Positions 2,498 to 39,432 of a stretch of DNA of 39,432 bases are shown one piece after another. The notes beneath the pieces were generated by a model. That model was not told where the DNA came from and searched no databases. It saw only the letters and a program-made list of their open reading frames with translations. The translations under genes and the position numbers were made by a program. The stretch's first letter is position 1. Each line of letters begins with the position of its first letter. The stretch spans positions 1 to 39,432 of the forward strand of contig CAXXJS010000056.1 in the NCBI GenBank assembly GCA_963662665.2, given 5' to 3'. This DNA comes from Candidatus Latescibacterota bacterium. Lineage in GTDB: Bacteria; Latescibacterota; UBA2968; GCA-2709665.

Positions 2498-2734
2498 CTA
2501 CGAGCCGAATGCATCCACAAACTTGAAGAAATCGGCAAAATTCACCGTTCCATTGCAGTCCAGGTCGAAGCGTGCGTCGGTGCCGCCGTACGCGAAGGCG
2601 AAGAGGAAGAAATTCACGATATCGGTCCGTCCGTTACTGTTGAAATTCGTCGAGGCCTGGGACTCGGCCGTAAAAGTCTCCCGTGAAATCCCGCCAGCCG
2701 TGACCGCGGTGGCGGCACGCATACTTGCCTTCAT
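2498..2734 (-). CDS. Stand-alone degenerate class-B dockerin (78 aa), possibly a pseudogene
   Basis: AAGGAGGA RBS before ATG 2734. Ends NFNSNGRTDIVNFFLFAFAYGGTDARFDLDCNGTVNFADFFKFVDAFGS, which aligns with the C-terminal dockerins of the cargo genes. Confidence 0.6.
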   Translation of the reverse strand: MKASMRAATAVTAGGISRETFTAESQASTNFNSNGRTDIVNFFLFAFAYGGTDARFDLDCNGTVNFADFFKFVDAFGS

Positions 2735-2812
2735 AGGGGATCCTCCTTCGACGTTCGGTCTCAACTCTTGACGGAGCCCAGGACGTACTCGGCGAATGCG
2801 ACTCACTTTGCC

Positions 2813-5800
2813 TCATTCTCCGACGGTACCGATGACGCGCCCATTCTCATCAACTACTTTGACCGGCCCCTCCGCGATGCAATCCCCCCATTCCAGGAGA
2901 TGCTCGGCGACGGGCTTCGCGCTCACCGGGGAAGGCAGCACGTACGCGTCGGCCCGACGAACGTCGATCTGGTAGCCGTGGTCGGCCAGCGACTGGATCG
3001 TAATTGCACTCAAAGGCAGGGACCCGTCGAGATCCGGCCTGACGCTCGCGGTCATCAGTTCGTCGCCAAACACCGATCCCCTCCAGTGACCGCTGTCGTC
3101 CTCTACGGGAACCTTCGGACCGCTGTAGCTCCGGCCTCCCGCATTGTCAAACGCTTGAATCGCCAGCGGGCCGGTGAAGTATCTATCACTGACTCCGCTG
3201 ACCAGGTTCAGTGTTTTCCATACCGTCCCAAACCCGAGGACGTGTGCCATTTCATGGAGGATTACCTCATAAAGAAAAGCATCGGACATCCACTCCAGAT
3301 CGTCTCTATCGATTGCTATCGTACCGATCTTCGTAACGAGGGCGCCCGATTGCCTGTTCCTTCGGACAATGAGCGTTCCACCTCTCCCGAGGGTGCCGCG
3401 GATGCCGTCAATGTCGCCAATTCCAACAACAATTCGCAGATCGTCCACAAAGTCGTTCACGCGTATCCGATTATTCAAATCGTCGTCCCACTCGTCGACC
3501 GGATTGTCCGAGAAGTCACTGTCCGGAATGTCTCCGGTAATGATCGACGTCCAACGCGCGGCAGCCTTGTGGAATAATGCCTTCCGTGACGCGTTGAATC
3601 CGTCGCCGGAGGCGCTTTCAATGAAGACGAGCTCGATTCGGAAAGGAGACGGCGCGCCACCCAAGGCCACGCCCGACGGATCGACCAGTCCGTTGGCGCC
3701 CGTGAGTAGATCTTCGACGTTCGAACCGTCGAGGTTGGCACGCTGGATCTTGTTCGTACCGGCGTCCGCCCAGTATATTTTCCCGCCGGCCGCGTCCAAC
3801 GCCAGGCCATTGGGTTTATCCAGGCCGCCGGTAACCAGATCTTCCATACTTGATCCGTTTAGATTCGCGCGCTGGATCTTGTCAGTGCGCCGGTCCGTCC
3901 AGTACATCTTTCCTGACGACACGTCAACGGCCAGCCCGGTGGGACTGCCAAGGCCGCTGGTAACCAGATCCTCCACCTGCGAACCATCAAGGTTGGCACG
4001 CTGGATCTTTTGGGATCCGGGGTTCGTCCAGTACATCTTCCCACCCTGCACGTCCAGGACCAATTCCCCGGGAAACACAAGGCCGCTGGTGATCAGATCT
4101 TCGACGTCGGTACCGTCCAGGTCGGACCGCTGGATCCTGCTGGTCTGCCGGTCCGTCCAGTACATTTTACCGCCGGCCAAGTCAAGAGCCAGGCCGTAGG
4201 GAATTCCCAGACCGGAAACCAGATCTTCAACACTGGCGCCGTCGAGGTTTGCCCGCTGAATCTTGTTCGTGCCCGCGTCCGTCCAGTAAAGCTTCCCGCC
4301 GGTCACGTCCAGAGCCAAACCGTCCGGACCGTCCAGTCCACCTCCGACGACCAGGTCTTCCACGCCCGAACCATCCAGGTTTGCACGCTGAATCTTGTCC
4401 GTGCCCCAGTCCGTCCAGTAAAGCTTCGACGCTCCCCTGGCAGGGGGTGTCACCGCCGCGACCGTTACGCTCACGGCAGCGGAGCAGTTGTTTCCGGTAT
4501 CTGATTCACCTGTTACCAGATCCACACAGGCGCCGTAGTAGTAGGTGCCGGGGCTTGATGGAAACGTCAAACCGATCGATCTATGGACGGCGCCCAAAGC
4601 CGCAAGACTTCCAATAGCGTCCGTGCCCACCGCCGCGTCACTCGCCGAAATTGTCGCGTCCGACGAGCGGTAGTAGCGCAGCGTTGTGGAGGCCGCCTGA
4701 CTGTCGCCCTGGTTTCGCACCGTCGCACTCAAGGTGAAGGACTGGCCGGGTGTGAGGGCGTTGCCGCTCACGGTGGGTCTTTCGACGACCAGGTCCGGAT
4801 CCCGGCCGCCTGGAGACGAGACCTCCTTCCCGAAATTCCGCGCAAAGATCAGAAAGTCGGAAAATCCAATCTCACCGTTTGCATCCAGATCGAAACGCGC
4901 GTCAAACCCCGCGTCGCCCCGTTGTTTTCCGAATCTCGCCGCAAATTGAAGAAAGTCGGAAAAACCAACCGTCCCGTCGCCGTCGAAGTCGGGAGACAGC
5001 GTGGCATTGAACGTGATCACGTTCGCTGACGTGAGCACTTCGCTCGACGTGATACTCTCGGCGAGCGTAACAGTCTCAATGCCGATGGAGAATTCCCGGC
5101 CTGTTGCATCCGCAACCGTTTCAAACTCGGCGCGCGCAAGAAAACCGGAGGGCGTCAACGATACCGGTGTACTGGACGCAAAGTTGGCGCCTGTGGACCC
5201 TTCCGGGAGCGTTAACGGAAACGCGCTGTTCTCGGCTTCGACGAAGGTCAGAAGCGAAGCATCGAAGTCGAATTTGAGGACCATTCCGATCAAGGGTGTT
5301 CTCACATCTGCAGCGAAAACCTCCACCGCGATGGTTGTTCCCGTTCCAGTGACAGTACCTGACGTCACGCGGTCGTCGATCCGGTTGCCCGCCCCGCCGC
5401 CGGGTATGAGGTCAAGTGACAGGGCATTGTCTTCGTCGTCGCCGGAAGACGGCGTGGCATTGAACGTGATCACATGTGTCGTCGTAAGTACGTCGCTGGA
5501 CGTCGTGCTCTCTGCCATCGTGACCATCTCAAAACCAATGGAAAACTCCCGGCCCGTGACGTCTGCAGTCGTTTCAAACTCGGCGCGCGCAAGAAAACCG
5601 GAAGGCGCCAAAGTGACCGGTGTTCTGGTCGCGAAGTTGGCGCCCACGGAACCTTCGGGAAGCGTTAACGGAAACGTGCTGTTCTCGGCCTTGACGAAGG
5701 TCAGAAGCGAAGGATCAAAATCGAATTTGAGGACAATGCCGATCAAGGGTGTTCTCACCCCGGTGGCGAAGACCTCGATGGCGATGGTCTGTCCGTCTCC

Positions 5801-5968
5801 TGAAACCGTACCGGTGATGACGCCGTCGTCGATCCGGTTGCCCGCCCCGCCGTCCGCAATCAGATCAAGGGAGAGTACCGCATTCGCATTCCGGCCGGCG
5901 AAGGCGTGACCGGTAAATATCAGCGACCCGAAAGCCAGGAGCGACAACAGAACCTGTCTTAGAGACAT
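2813..5968 (-). CDS. Adaptor scaffoldin-like protein: signal peptide, 2x cohesin-like, class-A dockerin, CARDB, YWTD propeller, leishmanolysin (M8)-like Zn peptidase
   Basis: Likely start MSLRQVLLSLLAFG at 5968 (GGAG RBS), not 6436. Two IEVFATGV..LIG.VLKFDFD.SLLTFV.AE domains; DFDGDGTVGFSDF…DLDANGEIGFSDF (4829-4990); PDLVV…ATVRNQG…YYYGACVD; six YW(T/A)(D/N) blades; HEMAHVLGF (3242-3256) followed by HW and ELMT. Confidence 0.85.
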   Translation of the reverse strand: MSLRQVLLSLLAFGSLIFTGHAFAGRNANAVLSLDLIADGGAGNRIDDGVITGTVSGDGQTIAIEVFATGVRTPLIGIVLKFDFDPSLLTFVKAENSTFPLTLPEGSVGANFATRTPVTLAPSGFLARAEFETTADVTGREFSIGFEMVTMAESTTSSDVLTTTHVITFNATPSSGDDEDNALSLDLIPGGGAGNRIDDRVTSGTVTGTGTTIAVEVFAADVRTPLIGMVLKFDFDASLLTFVEAENSAFPLTLPEGSTGANFASSTPVSLTPSGFLARAEFETVADATGREFSIGIETVTLAESITSSEVLTSANVITFNATLSPDFDGDGTVGFSDFLQFAARFGKQRGDAGFDARFDLDANGEIGFSDFLIFARNFGKEVSSPGGRDPDLVVERPTVSGNALTPGQSFTLSATVRNQGDSQAASTTLRYYRSSDATISASDAAVGTDAIGSLAALGAVHRSIGLTFPSSPGTYYYGACVDLVTGESDTGNNCSAAVSVTVAAVTPPARGASKLYWTDWGTDKIQRANLDGSGVEDLVVGGGLDGPDGLALDVTGGKLYWTDAGTNKIQRANLDGASVEDLVSGLGIPYGLALDLAGGKMYWTDRQTSRIQRSDLDGTDVEDLITSGLVFPGELVLDVQGGKMYWTNPGSQKIQRANLDGSQVEDLVTSGLGSPTGLAVDVSSGKMYWTDRRTDKIQRANLNGSSMEDLVTGGLDKPNGLALDAAGGKIYWADAGTNKIQRANLDGSNVEDLLTGANGLVDPSGVALGGAPSPFRIELVFIESASGDGFNASRKALFHKAAARWTSIITGDIPDSDFSDNPVDEWDDDLNNRIRVNDFVDDLRIVVGIGDIDGIRGTLGRGGTLIVRRNRQSGALVTKIGTIAIDRDDLEWMSDAFLYEVILHEMAHVLGFGTVWKTLNLVSGVSDRYFTGPLAIQAFDNAGGRSYSGPKVPVEDDSGHWRGSVFGDELMTASVRPDLDGSLPLSAITIQSLADHGYQIDVRRADAYVLPSPVSAKPVAEHLLEWGDCIAEGPVKVVDENGRVIGTVGE

Positions 5969-6089
5969 GAAAAACACTCCCGGGCAGCTTGATGGTGGTC
6001 TGATTTGCGCGTTACCGTGAGACTTCAACGCAAGATGCGTGCATAAAAGAAGGTGTTGAAATTCCCCCACCGCATCAGCCGTCGCCTGT

Positions 6090-6293: not shown

Positions 6294-8624
6294 CTACGAA
6301 CCAAACGCATCCACAAACTTGAAGAAGTCGGCGAAGTCCACGACCCCGTTTCCATCCAGGTCAAACCGGGGGTCCGTGCCGCCGTACGCGTCAGCAAACA
6401 GGAAGAAATCCACGAAGTCCGTCCGGCCGTCGGCATTGAAATCGGTCAGTGCGTGCGCCTGCCCCTGTGTCGTTACGGAATCGACGGACGACCACGGACC
6501 TTCGCCGGAACCGGTGACTGCCCTTACCTGAACGTCGAATTGCGTTCCGCCCGTCAGGCCGGTCAGTTCGTGGTTAAGCGAACCGGAACCGGTCGTCCAG
6601 ACGTCCTCCACCACCGTCCAGTTCGCGTCGGCCTTGTCCTGGGCGTCGCTGCGGATGTAGCGCAGGTCGTAAGCGGTAATGTCAGAGCCGCCGCCGCCGG
6701 GGACGGCCCAGGCCACCGTGATTGAGCCTGGTCCCGGCGTCACGGCACGGATAACGGGTGCGCTAAGGGCCGGCGTGCCTACTGGAGGCGAACCGATCTG
6801 CATTTCGTAGGCGTAAAGCTTATCGTCGATATAGTCAGCCACCCACATGGTCGTCCCGTCCGACCAGATCCCTCGCGGCTCACTGTTTCCGGCGTCACCC
6901 AGCGTTTCAATGTCTTTGACGTCGTCATGCGCCTTCGACGTCGCATCGTAGGCGTACAGCTTCTCATCGAACCAATCCGCCACCCAAATTGCAGTCCCGT
7001 CGGACCAGATGCCGAGCGGCCTGGCATTTCCAGCGCCGCCGAGCGTGCTGAACTCCCGTGCGGGATCCCGGACCCTGGATATCATGTCGTATGCGTACAA
7101 TCTCCTGTCGGAATTGTCCGCCACCCACATCGTCGTCCCATCAGACCAGATTCCCCACGGATCGTCATTTCCTGACCGATCCAGCGTGTCGAAGTCCCTG
7201 GATGGGTCGCGTGTACGTGAGGCCACGTTATAGGCGTACAGTTTTTTGTCATGGCTGTCCGCCACCCACATCGTCGTCCCGTCCGACCAGATGCCTGTGG
7301 GGGAGTCGTTGCCTGCCGGATCCAGCGAGTCAAAGTCCCTGGAAGGTTCACGGTCCCTGGAGTTCATATCGTAGGCGTACAGCTTTTCGTCATGCTGGTC
7401 CGCCACCCACATCGTCGTCCCGTCCGACCAGATTCCCGCGGGGGACGTGTTTCGGGCAGGGCGAAGGCCGGCGAAGTCATTCGCGGGGTCCCGCTCGAAT
7501 CGAACGCCAACGGCGGTGAGTTCCCATTTTCGCACGTCTCCGTCGTCGGCGCCGGTGACGAGAAAGCCGCCGTCCGGACTGAAGGAAACGCTGCGGACGG
7601 GAGATTCATGTCCAAGCGACGCCTTGACTATCCACGTAAGCGGATCCCACAGCCGCGCCAGCCCATCGGCGCTCCCACTCGCGAACAGGCTGTCGCCCGA
7701 GGCAAACGCCACGCTGAGCACAGGCGAATTGTGATTGAGCGTCCCCAGATGCTCACCATCTTCGGATTTCCACACCCGTACTGAACCGTCCGTGCTCCCA
7801 CTGGCAATCACACTCCCGTCGAAACTGAAAGCCAGGCTGCCAACGGTCCCCGTATGCCCGCTCATTGTGCGCTGGTGTGCGCCTGTTTCTCCGTCCCACA
7901 GCCGGATGGTCCCGTCCGCGCTGCCGCTGGCCAGCACTTCGCCGTCGAGGCTGAACGCCAGACTCGACACGCTGTCCGTATGCCCTTCCAGGGTTCTGGT
8001 GTGCAGGCCGGTCTCCGAATTCCATAGCCGAACAGTCCAATCGGCGCTCCCGCTGGCGAGGACGTGATGATCGACCGGGCTGAAAGCCGTGCTCAGGACG
8101 GCGCCGGTATGACCGGTGAGCGTGGTCTTGAGTACTCCGGTTTCCGGGATCCACAAGTTCAGCAGTCCATCTTCCGTTCCGCTCGCCAGCACACAGCCGT
8201 CCACGGCGCAAAACGTCAGACTCAAGACGGCAGACAGATGCCGCAACGTAAGCGTGATCCCACCGCTAAAGATATCCCACAGGAGAACCTCGTAGTCACA
8301 ACCGCCGCTGGCCAGTGTCGCCCCGTACGGGTCGAAGGCGGTCGTCAATACACATCCGGTATGCCCCACCAACGTCAACGTGAGTCTAACGGTGAGATCG
8401 ACCACTCCAACCGCGACTTCGACCACTCCCACCGCGACGTCCACGACGGCGACCGCGACGTCCACGAACGTGGTTGCAACCGTGGAGACCGTCTCGATAA
8501 CGTCGCCGATCACACCAAAGAGATCATCGAAGAAGCCATAACCCGTACCAACAACCGTTCCGATCACCAGTAACACGGTGAGGATTGACACCGTCAGCTT
8601 TCGACTGGATATCGTGTATTTCAT
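6294..8624 (-). CDS. Cargo protein: signal/amphipathic N-terminus, WD40 propeller, 5x GIWSDG repeat, FN3, C-terminal class-B dockerin
   Basis: GH..V.S.AFS.DG..LASGS.D..VRLW repeats; five GIWSDGT..WVAD units; ITVAW…YDLRY…FDVQVRAV…G.GPWS (FN3); DFNADGRTDFVDFFLFADAYG…DLDGNGVVDFADFFKFVDAFGS. Confidence 0.9.
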   Translation of the reverse strand: MKYTISSRKLTVSILTVLLVIGTVVGTGYGFFDDLFGVIGDVIETVSTVATTFVDVAVAVVDVAVGVVEVAVGVVDLTVRLTLTLVGHTGCVLTTAFDPYGATLASGGCDYEVLLWDIFSGGITLTLRHLSAVLSLTFCAVDGCVLASGTEDGLLNLWIPETGVLKTTLTGHTGAVLSTAFSPVDHHVLASGSADWTVRLWNSETGLHTRTLEGHTDSVSSLAFSLDGEVLASGSADGTIRLWDGETGAHQRTMSGHTGTVGSLAFSFDGSVIASGSTDGSVRVWKSEDGEHLGTLNHNSPVLSVAFASGDSLFASGSADGLARLWDPLTWIVKASLGHESPVRSVSFSPDGGFLVTGADDGDVRKWELTAVGVRFERDPANDFAGLRPARNTSPAGIWSDGTTMWVADQHDEKLYAYDMNSRDREPSRDFDSLDPAGNDSPTGIWSDGTTMWVADSHDKKLYAYNVASRTRDPSRDFDTLDRSGNDDPWGIWSDGTTMWVADNSDRRLYAYDMISRVRDPAREFSTLGGAGNARPLGIWSDGTAIWVADWFDEKLYAYDATSKAHDDVKDIETLGDAGNSEPRGIWSDGTTMWVADYIDDKLYAYEMQIGSPPVGTPALSAPVIRAVTPGPGSITVAWAVPGGGGSDITAYDLRYIRSDAQDKADANWTVVEDVWTTGSGSLNHELTGLTGGTQFDVQVRAVTGSGEGPWSSVDSVTTQGQAHALTDFNADGRTDFVDFFLFADAYGGTDPRFDLDGNGVVDFADFFKFVDAFGS

Positions 8625-9127: not shown

Positions 9128-10189
9128 CTATCTACCGCCAAGCCTGACGCCGATACCGATAAGGAGCGAGAAGTCATTGACTTCGTCGTCAAACCAGCGC
9201 CGATACTGTCCCTCCGCGCGAACGACGAAAGCAGGTCCCAGGTACACCTGATAGCCCACGCCGCCGCCGGCGGAAAAGTCGGCCTCAGCCTCCCGTTCGT
9301 CCACGTCGAGAACCAGAACCGCGCCGTTGCACAGCAGATACGGCCCGGAGACGGCATTGTCTCGCAGAGTGAACAAGGCGCGCCCCCCAAAATTCAGGGA
9401 CGTGGTCTCAACCGCGCTGCCGGAACTTCGCCCGACGTTGATTTCCGGACCGCCGGACATGTTGGCGCTCGGAAACCAGGAGATAAAAATCGACGGATTT
9501 CCCAATACCCCGGACGTGGGGGAACCCGGCACGGCCATCATAACGATACTATCGTCGTCGGAGGAGATTCGGGAAATTCCGAATCGCGTTCCGATTTCGT
9601 AGTCGGCGGCGGAGTCGTTCCGTACAACACCGCCAGGCCTTGCCCATGCGCCCAATCCGACGAGGAGCGAGAAGTCATTGATGCCGTCGTCAAACCAGCG
9701 CCGATAACGCCCCTCCGCGCGGAGTACGAAAGCCGGCCCAGGACGCCATCGATATCCCAAACCCCCTCCGGCGGCATAGTCAGTCACTGAGGGGCGCTCA
9801 CGAAGATCAAAATGCCGCACGGCGCCCTGGCACAACACATAGAGACCGGACGTTGAATATCCCAGCGGAAAGAATGTTCCTCGACCTCCGAAATAAAGCG
9901 ATGTGATTCCAAAAATGTCTCCGGCGGTCCGCCCGACACTGAACTCCGAACCGACCGACATGTTTGCAACCGGAAACCACGATACATAGAGCGACGGGAT
10001 ACCCGGGATGCCCAGCGTCGGAGAACTCGGCAGGCCGATTATGGTGGCCCCTTCGCCATGGGAGGTATGATGGGTGAGTCCGAACAGCGTTCCAATCTCG
10101 AAACCGCGGACCGATTCCATTTCCTGTGCGGAAACGGGGCCGGCCAGCACAAGTGCGGCCAGGAACGCGACCACCATAGAGCGCAGCAT
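9128..10189 (-). CDS. Outer-membrane beta-barrel protein with two tandem homologous barrel domains
   Basis: Start MLRSMVVAFLAALVLAGPVSA at 10189 (GGAG RBS). Two halves each run EIGT.FG…SWFP.ANMS…GGG.GY…GPAFV.RAEG.YRRWFDD..NDFSLL.G.G, with alternating hydrophobic beta-strand patterns. Confidence 0.75.
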   Translation of the reverse strand: MLRSMVVAFLAALVLAGPVSAQEMESVRGFEIGTLFGLTHHTSHGEGATIIGLPSSPTLGIPGIPSLYVSWFPVANMSVGSEFSVGRTAGDIFGITSLYFGGRGTFFPLGYSTSGLYVLCQGAVRHFDLRERPSVTDYAAGGGLGYRWRPGPAFVLRAEGRYRRWFDDGINDFSLLVGLGAWARPGGVVRNDSAADYEIGTRFGISRISSDDDSIVMMAVPGSPTSGVLGNPSIFISWFPSANMSGGPEINVGRSSGSAVETTSLNFGGRALFTLRDNAVSGPYLLCNGAVLVLDVDEREAEADFSAGGGVGYQVYLGPAFVVRAEGQYRRWFDDEVNDFSLLIGIGVRLGGR

Positions 10190-10226: not shown

Positions 10227-11576
10227 TTAAGTTCCGAATGCGTCGACAAATCTGAAAAAGTCAGCGAAGTCCACCCTGCCGTTGCCGTCGAGGTCGAAAC
10301 GTGCGTCCGTACCGCCAAACGCATCTGCAAAGAGGAAGAAGTCGATAAAGTCGGTCCTTCCATCGCCATTGAAATCGGTCGTCGCTGGAGCTTGCACCAT
10401 GGTCGTTACGGCATGCACCACCGACCATGGGCCTTCGCTCGAGCCGATGACCGCACGCACCTGAACGTCGTACCGCTGGCCTCCCGTCAGGCCGGCCGCC
10501 TCGTGGCTCAGCGCCCCGGCGCCGGTCGTCCAGATATCCTCCAGCACCGTCCAATTCGCATCGGCCTTGTCGGGAGCGTCGCTGCGGATGTAGCGCAGAT
10601 CGTAGGCGGTGACGGCAGAACCGCCCGTGTTCGAGGGTGCCGACCACGTGATGGTGAACGAGCCGCGGCCAGCCGTCAGCGAGAGTATGGCGGGCGCCGT
10701 CGTGGTGGTATTCAGGGACGGCATATCGTAGGCATAGATCTTGTGGTCGAAGTCGTCGGCCACCCACATTGTCGTACCGTCGGACCAGATGCCCGTCGGG
10801 CTGGCGTTTCCTGCGTCGGCCAGCGTGTTGATTTCCTTGTCGCGGTCCCGGGCCCCGGACGTCAGATTGTACGCGTAGATTCGCGCGTCGACGTTATCCG
10901 CCACCCACATCGTCGTTCCGTCCGACCAGATGCCCGTTGGCTCGTCGTTTCCCGCGGCGCCCAGCGCATTTATGTCTTTGCTGGAGACCCGAGACCCGGT
11001 AGCCAGGGCGAAAGCATAGATCATTTCGTCAGACATGTCCGCCACCCACATCGTGGTTCCGTCCGACCAGATGCCCTCCGGGTTGTCGTTTCCGGCAGCT
11101 TCCAGCGTATTGATGTCCTTGTCGATGTCCCGGGCTTTCGTCGCCAGGGTATATGCATAAATCTTCTCGCCGAACCACGGATCGTCCGCCACCCACATCG
11201 TGGTCCCGTCCGACCAGATCCCCTCCGGCTCACCGTTTCCGGCGTTATCCAGCGTATTGAAGTCCTTATCCGGATCCCGAGCACCGGTCGCCCTGGCGTA
11301 CGCGTAAATCTTCTGGTCGCCCAGGAACTGATCGTCTGCCACCCACATTGTGGTACCGTCCGACCAGATCCCCTCGGGTTCGTCGTTTCCCGCGGCGCCC
11401 AGGGTATTGATGTCTTTACCGGAATCCCGATCGCAACACGAGGCCAGGATCATTTTCTGCGACTCGCCCACGTTTCCGTCCTCTCCGCTGCTACCCGTAC
11501 GCGAATAGCCGAATATAGCCGGCATCACAACGATAAACCACACGATGTGCCGTCGCTGGCGGATAAATTGCATCAT
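10227..11576 (-). CDS. Cargo protein: 5x GIWSDG repeat, FN3, C-terminal class-B dockerin
   Basis: Five GIWSDGTTMWVAD units. The FN3 and dockerin tail closely match those of 6294..8624. Confidence 0.88.
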   Translation of the reverse strand: MMQFIRQRRHIVWFIVVMPAIFGYSRTGSSGEDGNVGESQKMILASCCDRDSGKDINTLGAAGNDEPEGIWSDGTTMWVADDQFLGDQKIYAYARATGARDPDKDFNTLDNAGNGEPEGIWSDGTTMWVADDPWFGEKIYAYTLATKARDIDKDINTLEAAGNDNPEGIWSDGTTMWVADMSDEMIYAFALATGSRVSSKDINALGAAGNDEPTGIWSDGTTMWVADNVDARIYAYNLTSGARDRDKEINTLADAGNASPTGIWSDGTTMWVADDFDHKIYAYDMPSLNTTTTAPAILSLTAGRGSFTITWSAPSNTGGSAVTAYDLRYIRSDAPDKADANWTVLEDIWTTGAGALSHEAAGLTGGQRYDVQVRAVIGSSEGPWSVVHAVTTMVQAPATTDFNGDGRTDFIDFFLFADAFGGTDARFDLDGNGRVDFADFFRFVDAFGT

Positions 11577-19495: not shown

Positions 19496-19574
19496 AGTAT
19501 CCCCCTCAACTCATCTCATGCGAAATTGCCAAATGGGCACGGATCTGCCGAAGGCGTCGACAACCTGGAGTATC

Positions 19575-30789: not shown

Positions 30790-32487
30790 TCTGAATAATT
30801 CACAAAAAAGGTAGTTTCCTTACCCAAGTCATTGTATTATATTATGGTTACGAGAATAACCTGATAACAATGAACCGGGAGGAAACTACCGTGGCAGGTC
30901 AAGATAAACAACAAAGGATGTCTTTCGCAAGTGTTTCTGGCAAACGGGTAGAAGCCACCTTCGACGGGGGCATGCTGACCAGCGACACCGGGGCGATGCT
31001 GCTTCGCGAGGTGGAATCCAGAATCGGCATTTTGTGTCGGATCGTCGAGGCGATAACAGATCGTCGGCATCCAAGTTACGTGGATCACCCGTCGGTGGAC
31101 CTGCTGACTCAGCGTGTCTTTCAGATGGCGTGTGGGTATGAGGATGCGAACGACTGCAATGCGTTGCGTAGTGACCCCGGCTTCAAGGCGGCCTGCGATC
31201 GGTTGCCGGTCACCGGTGCCAACCTGGCCAGTCAACCCACGATGAGTCGGTTCGAGAACCGGATCACCAGAGGTGACTTATATCGTATCGCGAAGGCCTT
31301 TGCCGATGCGTTTATCGCCTCGTATAAGCACCCCCCTGAAGCCATTCTGTTGGATATCGATGACACGGAAGACAAGGTGTATGGATCCCAGCAGTTGTCG
31401 TTATTCAATGCGTATTTCAAGGGCTATTGCTACCAACCCCTGCATATCTATGAAGGGCAAACCGGCAAGTTGATCACGACGGTCTTGCGTCCGGGCCGCC
31501 GACCCACGGGCAAAGAGATCGTGTCGATTCTCAAACGGGTGATCGCCTACCTGCGTAAAGCATGGCCCGATGTCAAGATCCTGTTGCGTGGCGATTCACA
31601 CTTTTCGTGTCCGGAAGTGCACACGATGTGTGACGAAAACGATGTGTTTTTTATCCTCGGACAAGGCGGAAACGCGGTGCTGCTGCGGTTGGCACAGCCC
31701 TTGATGGACCAGGCCAAAGCGCTGTATGCCGATGGGGGAAAACCTGTGCGCCTGTATCGCTGTTGGGACTATCAGGCCGGCAGCTGGTCTTCCCCACGCC
31801 GCATCATCTGCAAGGCAGAAGTCACCCCGCAAGGTCACAATATCCGATTCGTGGTCACCAACCTGAACGGCGCACAACCGTCATTCATCTACAAAACCGC
31901 TTATTGCTCACGCGGCAGGATGGAAAACTTCATCAAGAATCACAAGACCTTTCTGCATTCCGATCGCACCTCTTGCCACACCTTCCACGCCAATCACTTC
32001 CGGCTCTTTCTCCACAGCGCCGCCTATGTGTTGGTGCACGCCCTGGCCCATATCGGGTTGCGCGGCACCACGTGGACGAACGCCCAGTTTAATACGCTGC
32101 AAAACCGCATCTTGAAAGTCGCCGGGCGCGTTTGTGAACTGAAAACCAAAATCACGTTCCATCTGCCAACGGCGTTTCCACTCAAACACCTCTATCGAAC
32201 CATGCTCTACAATCTGGGAACCGCCATGCCATAACGTTTCCATCTGGAACAGGCCGCCTTCACGTCTTGATTGCTACCACCAAAAGCCATGGAGAAGTCT
32301 GTGCTCTTGGCAGTCACAACAAGGTCATCCTGACGCCTCCACGCAACCCTGCTACAAAAATACACCCTGAAATCGCTTGAAAACGCCAGTTCCGCACAGC
32401 CAGCTTTCTCCTGCGTTCTTAGACTCACTCGAAAGCTGCTTCTGCTGCACGAATCTGCAATCCCTGACGATTCATGAATAGGTCAGG
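30790..32487 (+). mobile_element. IS1380-family insertion sequence (1698 bp)
   Basis: Imperfect terminal IRs: tctgaataattcac (left) versus cctgacctattcat (reverse complement of the right end). Flanking TTAA direct repeats at 30786-30789 and 32488-32491. Single transposase ORF. Confidence 0.85.
30891..32234 (+). CDS. IS1380-family DDE transposase
   Basis: FDGG.LTSD.G, QR…GYEDAND…LRSDP, LASQPTMSRFEN, LDIDDT, LRGDS.F, Y..RG.MENFIK, SC..F.AN..RL. GTG at 30891 follows a GGGAGG RBS (the ORF track starts at 30870). Confidence 0.92.
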   Translation: MAGQDKQQRMSFASVSGKRVEATFDGGMLTSDTGAMLLREVESRIGILCRIVEAITDRRHPSYVDHPSVDLLTQRVFQMACGYEDANDCNALRSDPGFKAACDRLPVTGANLASQPTMSRFENRITRGDLYRIAKAFADAFIASYKHPPEAILLDIDDTEDKVYGSQQLSLFNAYFKGYCYQPLHIYEGQTGKLITTVLRPGRRPTGKEIVSILKRVIAYLRKAWPDVKILLRGDSHFSCPEVHTMCDENDVFFILGQGGNAVLLRLAQPLMDQAKALYADGGKPVRLYRCWDYQAGSWSSPRRIICKAEVTPQGHNIRFVVTNLNGAQPSFIYKTAYCSRGRMENFIKNHKTFLHSDRTSCHTFHANHFRLFLHSAAYVLVHALAHIGLRGTTWTNAQFNTLQNRILKVAGRVCELKTKITFHLPTAFPLKHLYRTMLYNLGTAMP

Positions 32488-32718: not shown

Positions 32719-33309
32719 TCAATCCATAAGGTTTGTCCGGACGTCCTGGACTTGTCCCAGTTTCCAATTTCTGCGATATTTCGTCGGGCTGTTACCGTAT
32801 TTCTCTTTGAAAACCTTGCTGAAGGTCGATAACGACCCGAAGCCGCACAAATAAGCGATTTCCGAAATGGAGGCCGTGGTATTCTTCAGTGCTTCTTCAC
32901 CCTTAGCCACGCGGACGTTCCGCAGACTCTTGCTGAATGACTCGCCCAGATGCTTCTTGAACAACGCATACCCGTAGGACTTGGAGAACCTGAAATAACG
33001 CACGACGTCTTCAAATCTTAAATTGGGATTGCTGTGGTTGTCTTCGAGAAACGACTCCAGGCGGCTCTTCCACAGATCCTGTAAAGGCATATATTTTCTG
33101 ATGTTTGCCAGAAAAACATCCTTATCGATCGGCTTGTCGAATACGCTCATGGTGAACGGCTTGTTCACTCTCTCGCCCAGTTCAAGGGTACCCAGGCTTG
33201 TTACCAGCAGCACTGACGTCCGGATTTCCTCTTCCTTCACGCCCTCCAGAGCGGTCCCGAACCATCCCTGGCACTGGGTAACTGAGATCAGCGTGAAGGA
33301 GATTCTCAT
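32719..33309 (-). CDS. AraC-family transcriptional regulator with a partial or degenerate receiver-like N-terminus
   Basis: SISEIAYLCGFGSLSTFSKVFKEKYGNSPTKYR is the AraC signature. The N-terminal VLLVT…DKPID resembles the second half of a receiver domain. The start position is uncertain. Confidence 0.8.
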   Translation of the reverse strand: MRISFTLISVTQCQGWFGTALEGVKEEEIRTSVLLVTSLGTLELGERVNKPFTMSVFDKPIDKDVFLANIRKYMPLQDLWKSRLESFLEDNHSNPNLRFEDVVRYFRFSKSYGYALFKKHLGESFSKSLRNVRVAKGEEALKNTTASISEIAYLCGFGSLSTFSKVFKEKYGNSPTKYRRNWKLGQVQDVRTNLMD

Positions 33310-33358: not shown

Positions 33359-36076
33359 TTACCGATTGCCAATCTCGGGCAGGGCAACCATCCATTGCCC
33401 ACCCCAGGCTGAGTCGTCCATCTGATGAACACAGCCGACCGACCCGTCCTGGTTCGCCTCCGGCTCGGCGACACGGTAAGTCACGGTCCGCTTGCCGGCC
33501 ACGCCTGACCGGCGGTAAGCCGACAAGCCATCCATCGTCAGCGTCGCCCGGCCCCCGGTGGCTTCCCAGAAATTGAACAGGCTCGAATCGTCTTCGCCAG
33601 CATGAGTGAATGCCTGTACTGCTTCACTCAAATGGTCCAACGTGATTTGCCGAGGCGGGTGCAATGGATCTACGGCCAGGATAAGGGCGGCGCGGAACTG
33701 TCTCTGTGACTGGAGGCTATTGGGCACCCGCGCCCCATGCTCGGCTACGATACGCTCGATGGACCACGTCGAGACCTTCGAGGCCGTGAAGATCTGATTG
33801 CCTGCAGCGTCATAGACCCAATTGCCGGATCCATCCTTCAACCCCGCGCCGTCCTCGGCCACCCATAGATTCGGAACCTCGGAGGGCGGGATCAACCCGG
33901 CGAAATACAGCTCTATCGGGCTGTACGGCACGCCGTTGCCGCCATTGGCGACAAGCCCGAAGTCGCCGGCCGAATACCGGCCGCCGCCGTGATCCACCAG
34001 ATTGGCGCGGTCGAACCCGCCCAACTGCCCGTTGGCGCTGCTGAAACCCCAGTGTCCCCCGGCCGCGGTGGGAATCGTAAAGTTCGCCCACGAATGCAGA
34101 ATCTCGTGGAGGAACGGCCCCCTCGGGAGCGCGGTGTTGTAGGGAAAATGAAGGATAGCGTTCAGCCTGCCCGCCGATCCCAACTCCCGGTTTTTCGAAT
34201 ACATGGACTTGCCCGTACCCTTGACGTCGTTTCGGACTGAGAGATGTATGCCGGCATAGGTATAATGCTCGCTGTCTCCGTATTCCGGGAGATTGGAAAG
34301 GACCATCAGGTAGTCAAAGGCATCTTCGTAGTGGGTGAAGAAGGCCCGGGCGAGCGCATCGAAGTCGATCGGGTCCGTTCTGAGCCGTCCGGGAACGCCC
34401 ATGACAACGATCCGGTCGTCGTGTTTTGCGACAAGGGTGGGCGAATCGTACTCCTCGATGGTCTCGGGATTGGGGTCGGCGTGGAGGTCCACCCCTCTGC
34501 GTTGCAGCGCAGGGACATAGATGGTGTATGAGATGGCGTTCAACGGATTGCCTCTCACGTCAACTTCAGCGCCCTGGGCCAACCCGCTATTTGCCGCCAG
34601 GGGTGAGAGGTCCGCTATCCTGTTGTTGCGAAGAGACAGCCTTGTCAGGTTGTTCAGCCCCGACAGCGGTGACACGTCCAAGACGTTGTTGTCATCAAGT
34701 CGCAGAAATGTCAGGTTGTTCAGCCCGGACAAGGGCGACACGTCTGAGACGTTGTTGTCATCAAGGCCCAGCGATGTCAGGTTGTTCAGCCCCGACAGTG
34801 GCGACACGTCTGAGACGTTGTTGTCATCAAGGCCCAGCTCGGTCAGGTTGTTCAGTGCGGACAGTGGCGACACGTCCGTGATGTTGTTGTAGGTGAGGCG
34901 CAGTGATGCCAGGTTGTTCAACCCTGACAGTGGCGACACATCCGTGATGTTGTTGCCCCATAGATCCAGCGATGTCAGGTTGTTCAGCCGCGACAGCGGC
35001 GACACGTTCGGGATACTGTTGGAATTGAGGCGTAGCGATGCCAGGTTGTTCAGCCGCGACAGCGACGACACGTTCGAGATGTTGTTTTCGGCAAGGTCCA
35101 GCGATGTCAGGTTGTTAAGCCCCGACAGTGGCGACACGTCCGTGATGTTGTTGTGCCATAGATCCAGCGTTACCAGATTGATCAGCCTCGCCAGTGGCGA
35201 CACGTTCGAGATGTTGTTGGAGGTGAGGACCAGCGATGTCAGGTTGTTCAACCCTGACAGTGGCGACACGTCCGTGATGTTGTTGTGCCATAGTTCCAGC
35301 GAAGTCAGGTTGTTCAACCCCGACAGTGGCGACACGTCCATGATGTTGTTTGCGCCAAGGTCCAGCGAAGTCAGGTTGTCCAACCCCGACAGTGGCGACA
35401 CGTCCCGGATGTTGTTATCGGCAAGGTCCAGCGAAGTCAGGTTGCTCAACCCCGACAATGGCGACACGTCCGTGATGTTGTTGTGACGAAGCATCAGTCT
35501 ACTCAGGTTATTCAACCCCGCCAACGGCGACACGTCCCGGATGTTGTGGCCGAAAAGGACCAGAATTTCCAGGTTCACAGCTGTCTCCAACCCGGCCAAA
35601 TCGCTGATGCCTTTTTCAGAGCCACCGAAATGCCGCAATGTCGCCATTTCAGCCTGGGTGATCGTCTCACCTGTCGCCTTGCCCAATGCATCCTCGATCG
35701 CTGCCCGCAGATTGGCGTCAGGGATTACTACGACCGGGGAGGGGACTTCCTTACCGAAGTTTTCCGCAAAGATCAGCAAGTCCGCAAACCCGATCTCGGC
35801 ATCGTTGTTGAGATCGTACTGAGCGTCAAATCCGTCATCGCCCTGTCCCAGGCCGTACTTTGCGGCGAACTTCACGAAGTCGCTGAAACCAACGGTCCCG
35901 TCGCCGTCGAAGTCCGGCAGAGTCGAGGTGTCATTGCCAACGGTATCATCCGTGATCGCGTGTGCTGCCGAGGCAACGTCAACATCGTCTGATCCGGCGC
36001 CAATAGCAACGTGACACACGAATGCCAGCAGCGCCGCGGTAGCGATGCATTTTATCCCGTTCCTGGGAACTATCAT
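33359..36076 (-). CDS. Secreted protein: N-terminal class-A dockerin, internalin-type LRR array, HEXXH Zn-metalloprotease-like domain
   Basis: GGAGG RBS; signal peptide; DFDGDGTVGFSDF…DLNNDAEIGFADL; IPDANLRAAI cap; about 15 22-aa LRRs; HEILHSW (34094-34108) followed by GHWG. Confidence 0.9.
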   Translation of the reverse strand: MIVPRNGIKCIATAALLAFVCHVAIGAGSDDVDVASAAHAITDDTVGNDTSTLPDFDGDGTVGFSDFVKFAAKYGLGQGDDGFDAQYDLNNDAEIGFADLLIFAENFGKEVPSPVVVIPDANLRAAIEDALGKATGETITQAEMATLRHFGGSEKGISDLAGLETAVNLEILVLFGHNIRDVSPLAGLNNLSRLMLRHNNITDVSPLSGLSNLTSLDLADNNIRDVSPLSGLDNLTSLDLGANNIMDVSPLSGLNNLTSLELWHNNITDVSPLSGLNNLTSLVLTSNNISNVSPLARLINLVTLDLWHNNITDVSPLSGLNNLTSLDLAENNISNVSSLSRLNNLASLRLNSNSIPNVSPLSRLNNLTSLDLWGNNITDVSPLSGLNNLASLRLTYNNITDVSPLSALNNLTELGLDDNNVSDVSPLSGLNNLTSLGLDDNNVSDVSPLSGLNNLTFLRLDDNNVLDVSPLSGLNNLTRLSLRNNRIADLSPLAANSGLAQGAEVDVRGNPLNAISYTIYVPALQRRGVDLHADPNPETIEEYDSPTLVAKHDDRIVVMGVPGRLRTDPIDFDALARAFFTHYEDAFDYLMVLSNLPEYGDSEHYTYAGIHLSVRNDVKGTGKSMYSKNRELGSAGRLNAILHFPYNTALPRGPFLHEILHSWANFTIPTAAGGHWGFSSANGQLGGFDRANLVDHGGGRYSAGDFGLVANGGNGVPYSPIELYFAGLIPPSEVPNLWVAEDGAGLKDGSGNWVYDAAGNQIFTASKVSTWSIERIVAEHGARVPNSLQSQRQFRAALILAVDPLHPPRQITLDHLSEAVQAFTHAGEDDSSLFNFWEATGGRATLTMDGLSAYRRSGVAGKRTVTYRVAEPEANQDGSVGCVHQMDDSAWGGQWMVALPEIGNR
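34600..35580 (-). repeat. About 15 tandem 66-bp LRR-coding repeats
   Basis: Recurring plus-strand unit gtcaggttgttca.cccgacagtggcgacacgtc..gatgttgtt; protein LNNLTSLxLxxNNI.DVSPLSG. Confidence 0.9.
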
Positions 36077-36386: not shown

Positions 36387-38671
36387 TCAAGGCACGGCGG
36401 TGATTCGAAAATCATCGCCCGCACGGGTGCCCTGGAGTCCGTTCAGGTTGAATCTCGCGCTGCAAAGCCTGCCGGAGCCGAATGGCGTATAGTTGTAACA
36501 TCCGCCGCCGATGTTTCTGAATGACCCGCCGCTGACGGTACAGCTCTCGTTTGGCCGCACGACCAGCCCCACGCGACACGCGCCAAGGTTGGACGTGACG
36601 CCGCCACCGGCGCTGACGGTGACGTTGAGGCCTGAGGAACAGTTATTGTCGGTATTGCTCTCGCCGGTGACGCCGTCAACGCAGGCGCCGTAGTAGTAGG
36701 TCCCGGCATCCGACGGCGCATTCAGGCTGATCGACTCGGCGCTCGTGCCCCCCGCGGACAGGCTGTTCACGGCGTCCGTGCCCACTTCCACGTCATCCGT
36801 CGAGATCGTCGTGTTGGACGAACGGTAGTAGCGCAAGGTCGTGGCCGCTGCCGAAGCATTGCCTTGATTGCGAACCGTAGCGCTAAGCGTAAACGACTGC
36901 CCGGTCGTGAGCGTGTTGTCGTCCACCGACGGGGATTCAACGATCAGGTCCGGGTTACCCGACGGGGGCGTCGCTGTCCCACCGTCGACCTCTACTTTAA
37001 CGCCTCGGCGCTGAAGGATTGGAATGTGCGTGTTGCGGGATGTACTGCTCAAAGGGTTGTCTTTCAAATTGACGATGTCTCCATCGCCCAATCCCGCATT
37101 TGCCACCAATGGCGAAATATCGGAGATGCTGTTGTGCCATAGATACAGGTATAGTAGGTTGGTTAAGCTGGACAGCGCAGATATATCCGTGATGCTGTTT
37201 CTGCCAAGATACAGGTATTTTGAGTTGGTTAAGTTCGACAGTGAAGAAATGTTTGAAATGCTGTTGGACCAAAGACTCAGTCGTTCCAAGTTGACCAGGT
37301 TGGACAGTGCCGAGATGTCCGAGATGTTATTCCCATCAAGACCCAGAGATTCCAGATTGGTCAAGTTGGACAGTGAAGAGATATCCGAGATGTTATTCCC
37401 ATCAAGACCCATCGTTTTCAAGTTGGTCAAGTTGGACAGTGAAGAGATATCCGAGATATGGTTTCTGTAGAGACTCAAGTGCGTCATGTTGGTCAAGTTG
37501 GAGAGCGCGGAAATATCCGAGATATTGTTGTCGCCAAGATATAGAACAGTCAGGTTGGTCAAGTTGGAGAGGGGCGAGAGGTCGGATATATCGTTGCTGT
37601 TGACCCACTTTCCATTTACTTCCGCCTGATCAAGTTCCAGCCATCCCAAATTGACCGCATGCTCAAGTCCTGTTAGATTGCGAATACCCTTGTTGGAAGC
37701 GTCAAAACCTGTCAAGGTCGCCATCTCGGCACGGGTAATCGGCGCATTACCCGCCTTGCCCAGGCTATCTGAGATCACCGCACGCAAATTGGCGTCCGCA
37801 ATGGTCACGGTCTCTCCTGTGTCGGAAGGCGTCCCGGCGCCGCCGGGGGGCGGAACCTGACTGCCGAACGCCGCCGGCAAAGATGAGAAAATCCGAAAAG
37901 GCAACGGACCCATCGGCATCCAGATCGAACCGCGCTTCATATCGCGCGTCGCCCGGGCTTGACCCAAAACTGCCCGCGAACGCAAGGAAGTCTGAAAACC
38001 CGACAGTCCCGTCGCCGTCGAAGTCGGGAGACGGCGCGGAGTTGAACGAGGTCTCACGGCTTGTCCTGAGCACGTCGCTGGACACCGAACTTTCGGCAAG
38101 GGTGGCAGATTCGATGCCGATGGCAAACTCCCGACCAGAGACATCCGCGACCGTCTCAAACTCCGCACGCGCCAGAAATCCGGAAGACGCCAATGTCACC
38201 GGCGACGTGGCGGCCAGGTTGACGCCGACGGACCCTTCAGGGACCGAAAGTGCAAACGCGCTGTTTTCGGCTTTGACGTAAGTCAGGAGTGAAGGATCAA
38301 AATCAAACTTCAGGCTCACGCCCCTCAGCGACGTCCTCACGCCCGTTGCAAAAACCTCAATGGCAATGGTCGTACCCCGGCCGGACACCGTGCCCGTGGT
38401 GACGCCGTCGTCTCTTCCATTGCCCACCCCGCCATCGGTGATCAGGTCGATAGACAAGACCGCATTCGCATTGTTACCCAGGGCGACTTTCGCGCCGTGT
38501 TCCGACAACGTACCCTTGATCCGGTCGCCATCGTCTCCGGTAACCAGTTCGCCGCCGGCAATCAGGTCAAGAGACGAAACTGCGTCTTCGCTGGACGCGA
38601 CGAGAACTGCACCTGTTAACGCGAAGAGGCCAAAAACCCGCAGTCAACAGCAGGCGAAATACAGGTTTCAT
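36387..38671 (-). pseudogene. Adaptor gene (cohesin-like, class-A dockerin, internalin LRR, CARDB, Cys-rich tail) split by two +1 frameshifts, either real or sequencing errors
   Basis: GGGAGG RBS and ATG at 38671. Removing one base at GGGTTTTT (about 38632-38639) restores the signal peptide MKPVFRLLLTAGFGLFALTGAVLVA. Removing one base at gccggcggcgttc (about 37866-37878) joins ORFs 37765..38508 and 36387..38168. The repaired protein is 760 aa. Confidence 0.8.
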
Positions 38672-38824
38672 AGCAAATCCTCCCTTTTGTCCATTTCGAT
38701 AATTGGCCTGTGGCGTGGTTGGCGACTGGAACACACCACTCGTCGCTACAAAATGGACAGGCGACGGCTGTACCCCTCAACGCGTCCCCGCACAGCAGCC
38801 GGATGGCGGCGTTCGCTGCGGAAT

Positions 38825-39432
38825 CTACTTTAACAATAGCATCCTCTTCGTTGCTGAAAAACCGCCTGCCCGTATCCGATAAAGGTAGATACCGCTTGCG
38901 ACACGGCGGCCCAGCGCGTCCGTCCCGTCCCACGTTGCCGAAAACGCCCCCGCGTTCCTCGGTTCATTCACAAGCACGCGCACCTGCTGGCCGAGAAGAT
39001 TGTATATCGCCAGGCGGACCAATCCCGCCTCGGACAACTGATAGCCGATCACCGTAGACGGGTTGAACGGGTTGGGCATGTTCTGGTCCAGATTGAAGCG
39101 ATCCGGCAGCGGCTTCAGATCGCCGATTTCAGCGTGGTGGAGCACGTCGACGGCGCCATCGAGGCCGACCAGCACGCTTTCCGATACCTGAAAGTCGGAC
39201 GGCACGGGTGTTCCGCTAGTCCTGAACACAAGCTCGACGAGTTTCCCGCCGCCGCTGGCGCCCAGGCCGTCGATCTTCACCGCGCCGATATCAACCTGCC
39301 CCGGGGTCCGGTTCGAAGACAAGAACAGCGTCTCCTGCCCCGAACCGGACTTCAGCAGATTCCCGTCCAGTTCCGTGGCATTCACGAACTCGTACTTCAC
39401 GGGATCGAACTGCAGGGATAGACCGTATCCCT
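38825..39432 (-). CDS. Second anchor protein: cohesin + FlgD-Ig/T9SS-like C-terminal domain (5' end outside the window)
   Basis: Near-identical to 28734..29543. The frame stays open to the edge (GYGLSLQFDPVKYEFV…), so the ORF-track 'start' at 39400 is an internal GTG. Confidence 0.9.
   Translation of the reverse strand, partial: GYGLSLQFDPVKYEFVNATELDGNLLKSGSGQETLFLSSNRTPGQVDIGAVKIDGLGASGGGKLVELVFRTSGTPVPSDFQVSESVLVGLDGAVDVLHHAEIGDLKPLPDRFNLDQNMPNPFNPSTVIGYQLSEAGLVRLAIYNLLGQQVRVLVNEPRNAGAFSATWDGTDALGRRVASGIYLYRIRAGGFSATKRMLLLK

Follow-up and report, generated by a model that had tools for sequence, protein, structure and literature searches.

A conserved, non-cellulosomal cohesin-dockerin island tied to type IX sorting domains in a Candidatus Latescibacterota bacterium

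Contig CAXXJS010000056.1 of a Candidatus Latescibacterota bacterium (assembly GCA_963662665.2), analysed here over its whole length of 39,432 nt and referred to as the window, holds a conserved genomic island that probably encodes a cohesin-dockerin assembly kit of three protein classes, anchors, adaptors and cargo, forming an exchangeable coat on the cell surface. The kit is real, conserved throughout the order and non-cellulosomal, and it places a known assembly principle in a new setting. As textbooks describe, Gram-positive anaerobes use cohesin-dockerin assembly to degrade plant cell walls; in the present case such connectors occur order-wide in a diderm lineage, are tied to sorting domains of the type IX secretion system (T9SS) and are loaded almost wholly with eukaryote-like repeats and proteases. 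The window is one complete contig (C56) of a 4.86-Mb assembly in 66 contigs, which is rated 92% complete and 5.4% contaminated, and all of its large genes except one lie on the minus strand.

Three classes of modular proteins

Hidden Markov models (HMMs) built from the window's own modules find ten dockerins, six of type A and four of type B, with i-Evalues of 1e-24 to 5e-31, and six cohesin-like modules, four of type 1 and two of type 2; dockerin and cohesin matches taken together have E-values from 1e-24 to 1e-94. With i-Evalues in this range the dockerin matches are not due to chance. The HMMs reproduce the counts of an earlier note on this DNA, which had read ten dockerins and six cohesins in co-oriented genes from the letters alone. 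The tenth dockerin, at 2498-2806, is indeed present as a module, but it is a remnant and not part of a working gene.

Type A is a module of 52 residues at the extreme C-terminus of the proteins encoded at 6294, 10227, 11627, 15511 and 21102 (genes are named by their lower coordinate) and in the stub at 2498-2806, while type B has 58 residues and is found internally or close to the N-terminus in the products of the 2813, 25258, 33359 and 36387 genes. Two copies of the type-1 cohesin are present in the 2813 protein and one each in those of 25258 and 36387, and type 2 is found in 28734 and 38825. The anchors have three parts only: signal peptide, type-2 cohesin and T9SS type-A C-terminal sorting domain (CTD). 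In the adaptors one or two type-1 cohesins are joined without a linker to a type-B dockerin; CARDB, YWTD or LRR modules come after it, and one adaptor also has an M8-like peptidase there. Cargo with a terminal type-A dockerin is encoded by five intact genes and one remnant, cargo with type B near its start by one gene. Signal-peptide-like N-termini are present on anchors, adaptors and cargo alike. All three classes exist as the note had listed them and are kept together as an island.

A Pfam scan of 21 open reading frames (ORFs) of the window at E<=0.01 placed WD40, Ldl_recept_b (YWTD), LRR, Glug, Cadherin-like, Cadherin, fn3 and CARDB over their cut-offs and gave no glycoside hydrolase (GH) or carbohydrate-binding module (CBM) family, so that both the repeat payloads that had been named (WD40, YWTD, LRR, GLUG, cadherin, FN3) and the lack of GH and CBM in the window hold. 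The claim of three zinc peptidases stands in part. The C-terminus of the 2813 protein matches a family (Peptidase_M8, 24.3 bits against a cut-off of 21), whereas the other two remain at the level of motifs: the 15511 protein has the metzincin motif HExxHxxGxxH with family matches below threshold, and the C-terminal domain of the 33359 protein matches nothing in Pfam, NCBIfam or the PDB sequences, its HExxH motif being the sole sign of a peptidase.

Adaptor 3 is broken into three frames in the window by one surplus base each at 37871 and 38637. Compared with the short-read contigs of four public runs, which stem from two studies, the base at 37871 is missing in three of the four and that at 38637 in all four. 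Without both bases the gene forms one stop-to-stop ORF of 795 amino acids (aa) with a complete type-B dockerin. We therefore rejected its interpretation as a pseudogene, since according to the contigs of the other runs the frameshifts are assembly errors of the window. At 37845 the window has a further surplus base relative to the contigs of one run.

The stub at 2498-2806 follows the stop of adaptor 2 in frame, at a distance of two codons. The first calcium loop of the stub has D-to-N changes, with D lost at loop positions 1, 5 and 12. As a complete type-A cargo gene of about 1430 aa occupies this place in the congeners, the stub looks like what a deletion left behind. An assignment of this dockerin to adaptor 2 was rejected because the congeners carry a separate gene here; in addition, the representative two-cohesin proteins P0121 and P0122 end without such a tail.

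Identity of the dockerins

Both dockerin types contain the 12-residue calcium-binding loop D-x-[DN]-x-[DN]-G-x-[VIT]-x-x-x-D twice, with a helix after each, and in the model of adaptor 1 the dockerin helices 161-168 and 194-203 are predicted with a local distance difference test score (pLDDT) above 90. The excised type-B module of adaptor 1 reaches 26.8 bits with Dockerin_1 (PF00404, cut-off 22.9), and the genome search gives a Dockerin_1 match of 25.4 bits at C56:27895-28041. With a deeper profile of the adaptor N-terminus, solved dockerins rank ahead of calmodulins (2y3n_B with E=2e-8, 4u3s_B, 4wi0_B, 2b59_B and 5k39_B). Type A is homologous to type B according to hhalign (probability 98.6%, E=1.3e-15). 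The Pfam check of the modules was positive for type B, while the cohesins and type A stay below the cut-offs when taken alone.

Identity of the cohesins

In predicted models both cohesin types of the window adopt the cohesin beta-sandwich, with Foldseek lists dominated by cohesins. The model of the cohesin and dockerin of adaptor 1 (pLDDT 95.7, predicted template modelling (TM) score 0.85) has 132 Foldseek matches in the PDB at E<=1e-3. Among those listed, the top ones are almost all cohesins, for example 2vo8 (TM 0.66), 5aoz (TM 0.63) and 2xdh, and they include the non-cellulosomal cohesins of Clostridium perfringens and Archaeoglobus fulgidus. The AlphaFold model of the anchor shows two domains with a pLDDT of about 85; its best Foldseek matches are 2w1n, the cohesin-FN3 part of C. 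perfringens GH84C (E=3.4e-10), 2jh2 (TM 0.70) and type I and II cohesins. Three type-2 paralogues in the same genome exceed the Pfam Cohesin cut-off (PF00963, 24.1 bits), namely L032 with 33.7, L033 with 34.5 and L037 with 26.4 bits, and some anchor orthologues carry a precomputed PF00963 annotation.

Both types open with G-x-N-A-N-A-x-L-x-L (28480-28494 and 29430-29453), the only stretch that hhalign aligned between them. That they are close paralogues is not claimed, the hhalign probability being 2.9%.

Sorting domain and secretion system

In agreement with the earlier description of the anchors as cohesin plus CTD, 28734 and 38825 both end in a FlgD_ig/Por_Secre_tail match in Pfam, with FlgD_ig over its cut-off, and the T9SS type-A sorting domain model TIGR04183 (cut-off 23 bits) matches the C-terminus of anchor 1 with 32.5 bits; in the search of the whole genome anchors 1 and 2 score 34.7 and 37.6 bits. 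Of the 16 proteins of the genome over the TIGR04183 cut-off, eight are type-2 cohesin proteins, and six of these are just cohesin and CTD. SprA is over cut-off in the genome (SprA_N, 105.9 bits) and present in all five closed relatives. The cell is that of a diderm, equipped with sorting domains of the T9SS type and the SprA translocon.

A 1933-aa peptidase of the gingipain family C25 (L062, G000:C40:4062-9860, G000 being the genome of the window) has, besides a propeptide and CARDB, a sorting domain of the T9SS type. Among the PorU-like matches of the genome this protein ranks first, below the cut-off of that model.

Conservation and pairing of the modules

Across 41 genomes of the order, G000 included, the type-1 cohesin is found in 37 and the type-2 cohesin as well as the type-B dockerin (E<=1e-15) in all 41. 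The anchor has 308 homologues; where the source gives a name, it is 'T9SS type A sorting domain-containing protein', from metagenome-assembled genomes (MAGs) labelled Gemmatimonadota or Latescibacteria, and the named anchor loci agree with this naming. With the type-1 cohesin profile, a search of 1.84 billion proteins yields 195 representative clusters. In 84 of the 150 best ones the cohesin is directly followed by a dockerin, and some of the remaining ones contain two or three cohesins or else a sorting domain.

The island is kept in co-oriented form in four congeners (G014, G007, G008 and G013), in the order anchor, adaptor with type-1 cohesin and type-B dockerin, and seven to eight type-A cargo genes enclosing an adaptor with two type-1 cohesins and a type-B dockerin. 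A genome of a second genus (G016) has the same gene classes, including seven type-A genes, in a different order. At 12 of 18 full anchor loci in other genomes, a type-B dockerin gene lies within 6 kb; at eight of the 18 it is the next gene downstream, and in four of these cases it is an adaptor with a type-1 cohesin.

Four relatives without the type-1 cohesin still have 13-26 type-B dockerins and two to four type-2 cohesin matches, which means that type B needs something besides type 1 to pair with. Type-A dockerins with high scores share their neighbourhoods with type-1 cohesin adaptors, and in G001, which lacks the type-1 cohesin, only a lower-scoring type-A variant is found, on an ORF of 1589 aa. 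Gene order and phyletic pattern thus modestly favour, as the best reading, a pairing in which type B would bind type 2 and type A would bind type 1.

Dockerin proteins of the genome

According to our HMMs, 76 stop-to-stop ORFs of the genome contain a dockerin (best match type A in 21 and type B in 55), 13 a cohesin and 18 a sorting domain, with two combining dockerin and sorting domain. Pfam over the genome gives 52 Dockerin_1 matches at E<=1, of which 28 are over the cut-off, and seven Cohesin matches, four of them over the cut-off. One Dockerin_1 match over the cut-off (29 bits, G000:C16:53913-54044) is absent from the type-A and type-B HMM lists, and the 76 ORFs are therefore a lower bound.

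The 80 ORFs with modules outside the window, 66 of which carry a dockerin, were scanned with Pfam in two scans (E<=1e-5 and 1e-6). These 66 comprise 13 ORFs with WD40, eight with LRR, three with YWTD, six with another propeller, FG-GAP or NHL, four with Ig-like domains only, five with other contents (FGE-sulfatase, dCache, Temptin and two giant dockerin-cohesin-CTD proteins), two that resemble carbohydrate-active enzymes (CAZymes), i.e. a GH5 and a heparinase II/III, and 25 with no family or EF-hand matches only. Peptidases among them belong to M60, M8, M10 and S8, with one 'Metallopep' match. CAZyme-like proteins make up two of the 76 dockerin ORFs, both outside the window, and no CBM was found in the window anchors and adaptors or in the other cohesin ORFs scanned. 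The dockerin proteins of this genome are hence not mostly CAZymes, and with this proportion a true cellulosome was rejected.

Two giant chains, L032 and L033 (G000:C17:7180-18118), each unite a Pfam-significant cohesin with a type-B dockerin and a sorting domain, and the WD40 protein L057 (G000:C36:58822-61731) has a dockerin beside a Pfam-significant cohesin that our HMMs do not flag. The genome therefore also encodes self-contained forms, and its cohesin types number at least one more than the two of the window.

A putative surface coat and its alternatives

The modules suggest the following route of assembly. Sec would take all proteins of the kit across the inner membrane, and the anchor would then pass the T9SS and be fixed to the outer membrane through its sorting domain. 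The type-B dockerins, carried by the adaptors and by about 55 further proteins of the genome, would plug into the type-2 cohesins in a calcium-dependent manner, and type-A dockerins into the type-1 cohesins of the adaptors, with an exchangeable cell coat of binding repeats and proteases as the outcome. The surface location is suggested by the sorting domain and SprA, while a host or particle matrix as target is a guess from the kinds of repeat. Host interaction is the reading of the earlier note, drawn from repeat types that the literature connects with symbionts. The cargo might either leave by an unrecognised route, with the OMP-like protein (OMP, outer membrane protein) and the lipoproteins of the island as candidates, and dock outside, or dock in the periplasm and ride out with the cohesin and CTD protein.

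A number of results weigh against this surface coat. The excised cohesins reach only 15.5 bits (type 1) and 20.0 bits (type 2) with Pfam Cohesin, excised type A only 16.1 bits with Dockerin_1, and the whole window proteins give Cohesin and Dockerin_1 matches below cut-off only; the identity of the window cohesins and of type A rests on folds, profiles and relatives. The top sequence matches of the cohesins in the PDB are themselves cohesins, though not significant (6kgc with E=0.07, NagJ cohesin entries with E=0.06-0.08; best for the anchor profile are 2ozn, 2o4e and 2jh2), and no profile relation between the two cohesin types was detected by hhalign. The pairing is drawn from gene neighbourhood and a handful of related, non-independent genomes, and as these are kin its support is only modest. 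Eleven of the 76 dockerin ORFs are shorter than 150 aa and probably fragments; the census was made on stop-to-stop ORFs of an assembly with indel errors, so that other short fragment ORFs in it may be artefacts, and the E-value thresholds used outside the window could miss a weak CAZyme match. Regarding export, 74 of the 76 dockerin ORFs have no sorting domain. The PorV-like (144 bits against 250), PorU-like (222 against 420) and GldK-like (95 against 350) matches are all below the NCBIfam cut-offs, and GldM had no match in the genome, in a search that matched no control genome either. Secretin, GspD and GspL were not found in the genome or the five closed relatives, although the controls were matched. 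With no sorting tail on the cargo and no secretin in these searches, the surface coat does not account for how the cargo would reach an anchor on the outer surface.

These last results can also be taken as evidence for a different, rather unlikely role of the proteins with cohesin and CTD, which would then be carriers instead of static anchors, the dockerin acting as a secretion tag supplied in trans. Folded dockerin proteins would dock in the periplasm, directly or via adaptors, and be exported through the T9SS translocon. Such export would fit dockerin ORFs without sorting domain in a genome where, as in the five closed relatives, SprA is present and no secretin or type II secretion system was found, and it would account for the high share of cohesin proteins (8 of 16), six of them nothing but cohesin and CTD, among the recognisable T9SS substrates. 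It would also agree with the statement in a sponge-genome survey that few sponge-symbiont lineages encode secretion-system genes and that eukaryote-like repeat proteins are unlikely to reach the host traditionally (PMC8163846). However, complexes of adaptor and cargo would be very large, and the island-specific OMP-like protein and lipoproteins could provide another route. We know of no precedent for non-covalent hitch-hiking through a T9SS, which counts against such carriers as well. If they exist, they would explain the bulk export of repeat proteins in such bacteria without a secretin-based system. Distinctly unlikely is an arrangement in which the linker-less units of type-1 cohesin and type-B dockerin chain head to tail or form a lattice, leaving the type-A dockerins to bind the type-2 cohesins of the anchors. 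A cohesin with a dockerin directly behind it is the signature of the family (seen in 84 of the 150 best representatives, besides the multi-cohesin forms), as expected for a self-assembling coat, but type-B dockerins remain numerous (13-26) in the four relatives that have no type-1 cohesin to receive them. Moreover, type-A cargo clusters with type-1 adaptors and not with extra anchors, there being one anchor for seven to eight cargo genes, and the usual neighbours of the anchors are type-B dockerin genes.

With the tiered coat of anchor, adaptor and cargo as the preferred reading, its use may be a different one. The same assembly might capture and digest proteinaceous or glycoprotein particles instead of serving host interaction, a possibility that has to be taken seriously even if we consider it doubtful on balance. 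The peptidases among the dockerin ORFs (M8-like, M10, M60 and S8) would suit a feeding device, as would the single GH5 and the single lyase of the heparinase II/III type, and PMC8163846 counts sponge-associated Latescibacteria (class UBA2968) among the few lineages in which enrichment in GH and carbohydrate esterases was for the most part confined. Most cargo is non-catalytic, however, as seen from the 13 WD40, 8 LRR, 3 YWTD, 6 other propeller and 25 family-less ORFs among the 66 outside the window. Finally, the modules might form no complex, dockerins being calcium-binding, stabilising tails without a partner and the cohesin folds generic Ig-like spacers. Dockerin_1 matches in 8 of 14 control genomes and calmodulins as the best PDB matches of type A point in this direction, as does the catalogue of non-cellulosomal cohesins and dockerins by Peer et al. 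from 2009, in which such dockerins are reportedly widespread and often occur without cohesins. In this genome, by contrast, cohesins and dockerins are co-amplified, fused to each other and kept together in the island and in pairs of anchor and dockerin genes, and the best fold matches are specifically cohesins and not other Ig-like domains, which makes a lack of any complex very improbable.

Relation to known systems

The logic of anchor, adaptor and cargo is that of cellulosomes with adaptor scaffoldins, such as those of Ruminococcus flavefaciens (ScaA/ScaB/ScaE) and Acetivibrio cellulolyticus (ScaA/ScaB). Shared with them are the cohesin fold (5aoz, 3l8q and 2zf9 are among the fold matches), dockerins with a duplicated calcium loop and a large excess of dockerins over cohesins. 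The resemblance is one of layout only, i.e. a cohesin scaffold, an adaptor with its own dockerin and an anchoring cohesin protein. Cellulosomes differ in their cargo, since here two of 76 dockerin ORFs are CAZyme-like and the window proteins have no CBM; the cell is a diderm, and the adaptors have just one or two cohesins, fused directly to the dockerin. Where cellulosomes are anchored by SLH domains or sortase, the anchoring domain is here a T9SS type-A sorting domain. Repeat proteins and peptidases with dockerins occur in cellulosomal species too, those of R. flavefaciens FD-1 including 28 LRR, 16 peptidase and 155 unknown modules (PMC2930009).

Cohesins outside cellulosomes are likewise present in C. 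perfringens glycosidases (NagJ/GH84C and GH33) and in A. fulgidus, which are among the best fold matches. These non-cellulosomal pairs link few enzymes to each other, and they have no anchor class, adaptor tier, cargo-gene island or outer-membrane sorting domain. In Bacteroidota, T9SS cargo such as the gingipains is anchored at the cell with a sorting domain on each protein. The TIGR04183 domain over its cut-off, the SprA translocon and the C25 peptidase with sorting domain (L062) are common to both, but most of the presumed surface proteins here carry a dockerin instead, and half of the proteins with a sorting domain are cohesins. In a paper on Omnitrophota, non-cellulosomal dockerins are read as possible adhesins (PMC10066038).

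In the open-access literature we found no description of cohesin-dockerin systems tied to T9SS sorting domains, or of such systems in Latescibacterota, Gemmatimonadota or sponge symbionts. A 2025 cellulosome review does not mention type IX, and its sole passage on Gram-negative cells concerns engineered display. Two genome papers on sponge lineages, one of them on Latescibacterota, report WD40, LRR, NHL and FN3 proteins; dockerin, cohesin and cellulosome are absent from their main texts, and type IX is absent where searched. Eukaryote-like repeat proteins are treated as hallmarks in sponge-genome surveys (PMC8163846), and the supplement of this paper gives a mean of 0.33 PF00963 per sponge MAG against 0.09 in seawater and of 0.02 PF00404 per sponge MAG, while the accessible supplements of the second sponge-lineage paper contain neither dockerin nor cohesin. 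With only 0.02 dockerins counted per sponge MAG in the Pfam table of PMC8163846, the divergent modules described here seem to have escaped notice.

Four small domains make the question of repeat-protein delivery testable at the bench. They may also offer a natural, orthogonal set of two connector pairs for surface display on Gram-negative cells, provided that the pairing suggested by gene order holds.

Genes and repeats of the window

The modules and neighbouring genes are listed in Table 1, together with the two CAZyme-like dockerin ORFs from outside the window.

Table 1. Coordinates of the island genes, their modules and neighbouring features
Feature	Coordinates	Strand	Content
Secreted WD40 protein	3..1871	-	C-terminus beyond contig end
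Type-A dockerin remnant of cargo gene	2498..2806	-	in frame behind adaptor 2
Adaptor 2	2813..5970	-	signal peptide; two type-1 cohesins 5447-5896 and 4994-5416; type-B dockerin 4823-4996; CARDB; YWTD propeller; M8-like peptidase 2816-3649
Cargo	6294..8624	-	WD40 propeller; 'GIWSDGTTMWV' repeats; FN3-like region (by eye); C-terminal type-A dockerin 6297-6452
OMP-like protein, two repeated halves	9128..10189	-	OMP_b-brl 23.2 bits, below cut-off
Cargo	10227..11576	-	'GIWSDGTTMWV' repeats; fn3; C-terminal type-A dockerin 10230-10385
Cargo	11627..15397	-	GLUG; Cadherin-like x2; 'GIWSDGTTMWV' repeats; C-terminal type-A dockerin 11630-11785
Cargo	15511..17766	-	metzincin-motif domain; WD40 propeller; C-terminal type-A dockerin 15514-15669
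Four small lipoprotein-like genes, one BamE-like	18510..20721	-	L-x-G-C lipobox-like N-termini; BamE 25.1 bits
Cargo	21102..25244	-	~100-aa N-terminal repeats; cadherin; YWTD propeller; LRR; C-terminal type-A dockerin 21105-21260
Adaptor 1	25258..28566	-	signal peptide; type-1 cohesin 28045-28494; type-B dockerin 27874-28047; CARDB x2; two YWTD propellers
Anchor 1	28734..29543	-	signal peptide; type-2 cohesin 29019-29453; T9SS type-A sorting domain 28734-29018
Insertion sequence (IS) transposase	30870..32234	+	DDE_Tnp_1_4, E=4.8e-156; between AraC-type regulator and anchor 1
AraC-family regulator next to anchor	32719..33150	-	HTH_18, E=4.6e-19
Cargo, type B	33359..36076	-	N-proximal type-B dockerin 35747-35920; long LRR array; C-terminal domain with HExxH
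Adaptor 3	36387..38673	-	signal peptide; type-1 cohesin 38029-38478; type-B dockerin 37876-38031; LRR (LRR_4); CARDB
Anchor 2	38825..39430	-	type-2 cohesin 39110-39430; T9SS type-A sorting domain; N-terminus cut by contig end
Heparinase II/III-type lyase with dockerin (L055)	G000:C34:44150-47107
GH5 cellulase-family enzyme (L077)	G000:C49:83290-84453		N-proximal dockerin

Anchor 2 is 93% identical to anchor 1 over the shared part, with FlgD_ig at 35.2 bits. The start of adaptor 2 is Met157 of a long ORF, where a signal peptide begins the protein, and the YWTD propellers of adaptor 1 match Ldl_recept_b with E=1.2e-101. The type-B cargo at 33359 reaches 106 bits with the type-B dockerin HMM and E=8.5e-56 with LRR_4. 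The secreted WD40 protein at the other end of the contig is possibly a further cargo.

The OMP-like gene and the four lipoprotein-like genes are island-specific and single-copy in the genome, two of the latter being paralogues of each other. Islands of G007, G014 and G016 contain the OMP-like gene at 79-88% identity, and those of G007, G008 and G014 the lipoprotein genes; G013 has partial matches. Their products may be tied to the export or anchoring of the system. The AraC-type regulator adjoining the anchor is kept in G008, G014 and G013 at 87-94% identity. The IS is not part of the cohesin-dockerin system: it has 14 tblastn matches in the genome, of which the eight listed are 98-100% identical, and no match in five related islands. 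It occupies what should be the control region of the island.

The products of the 6294, 10227 and 11627 genes (6294-8624, 10227-11576 and 11627-15451) share a repeat of ~45-50 aa, '...AGN..P.GIWSDGTTMWVAD....KIYAY...', with four to about nine copies per protein. Its only match over cut-off is NCH3 (PF22729, 38.4 bits), its SGL/arylesterase propeller matches being weak, and it may be an undescribed propeller-type repeat. The N-terminal part of the 21102 protein (23175-25157, minus strand) consists of six or seven tandem units of ~100 aa ('...ESVTATT.S.LTEATLDGSVVTLTL...GTLTFTVG..AI'), which match no family except BT_3987-like_N at 29.8 bits.

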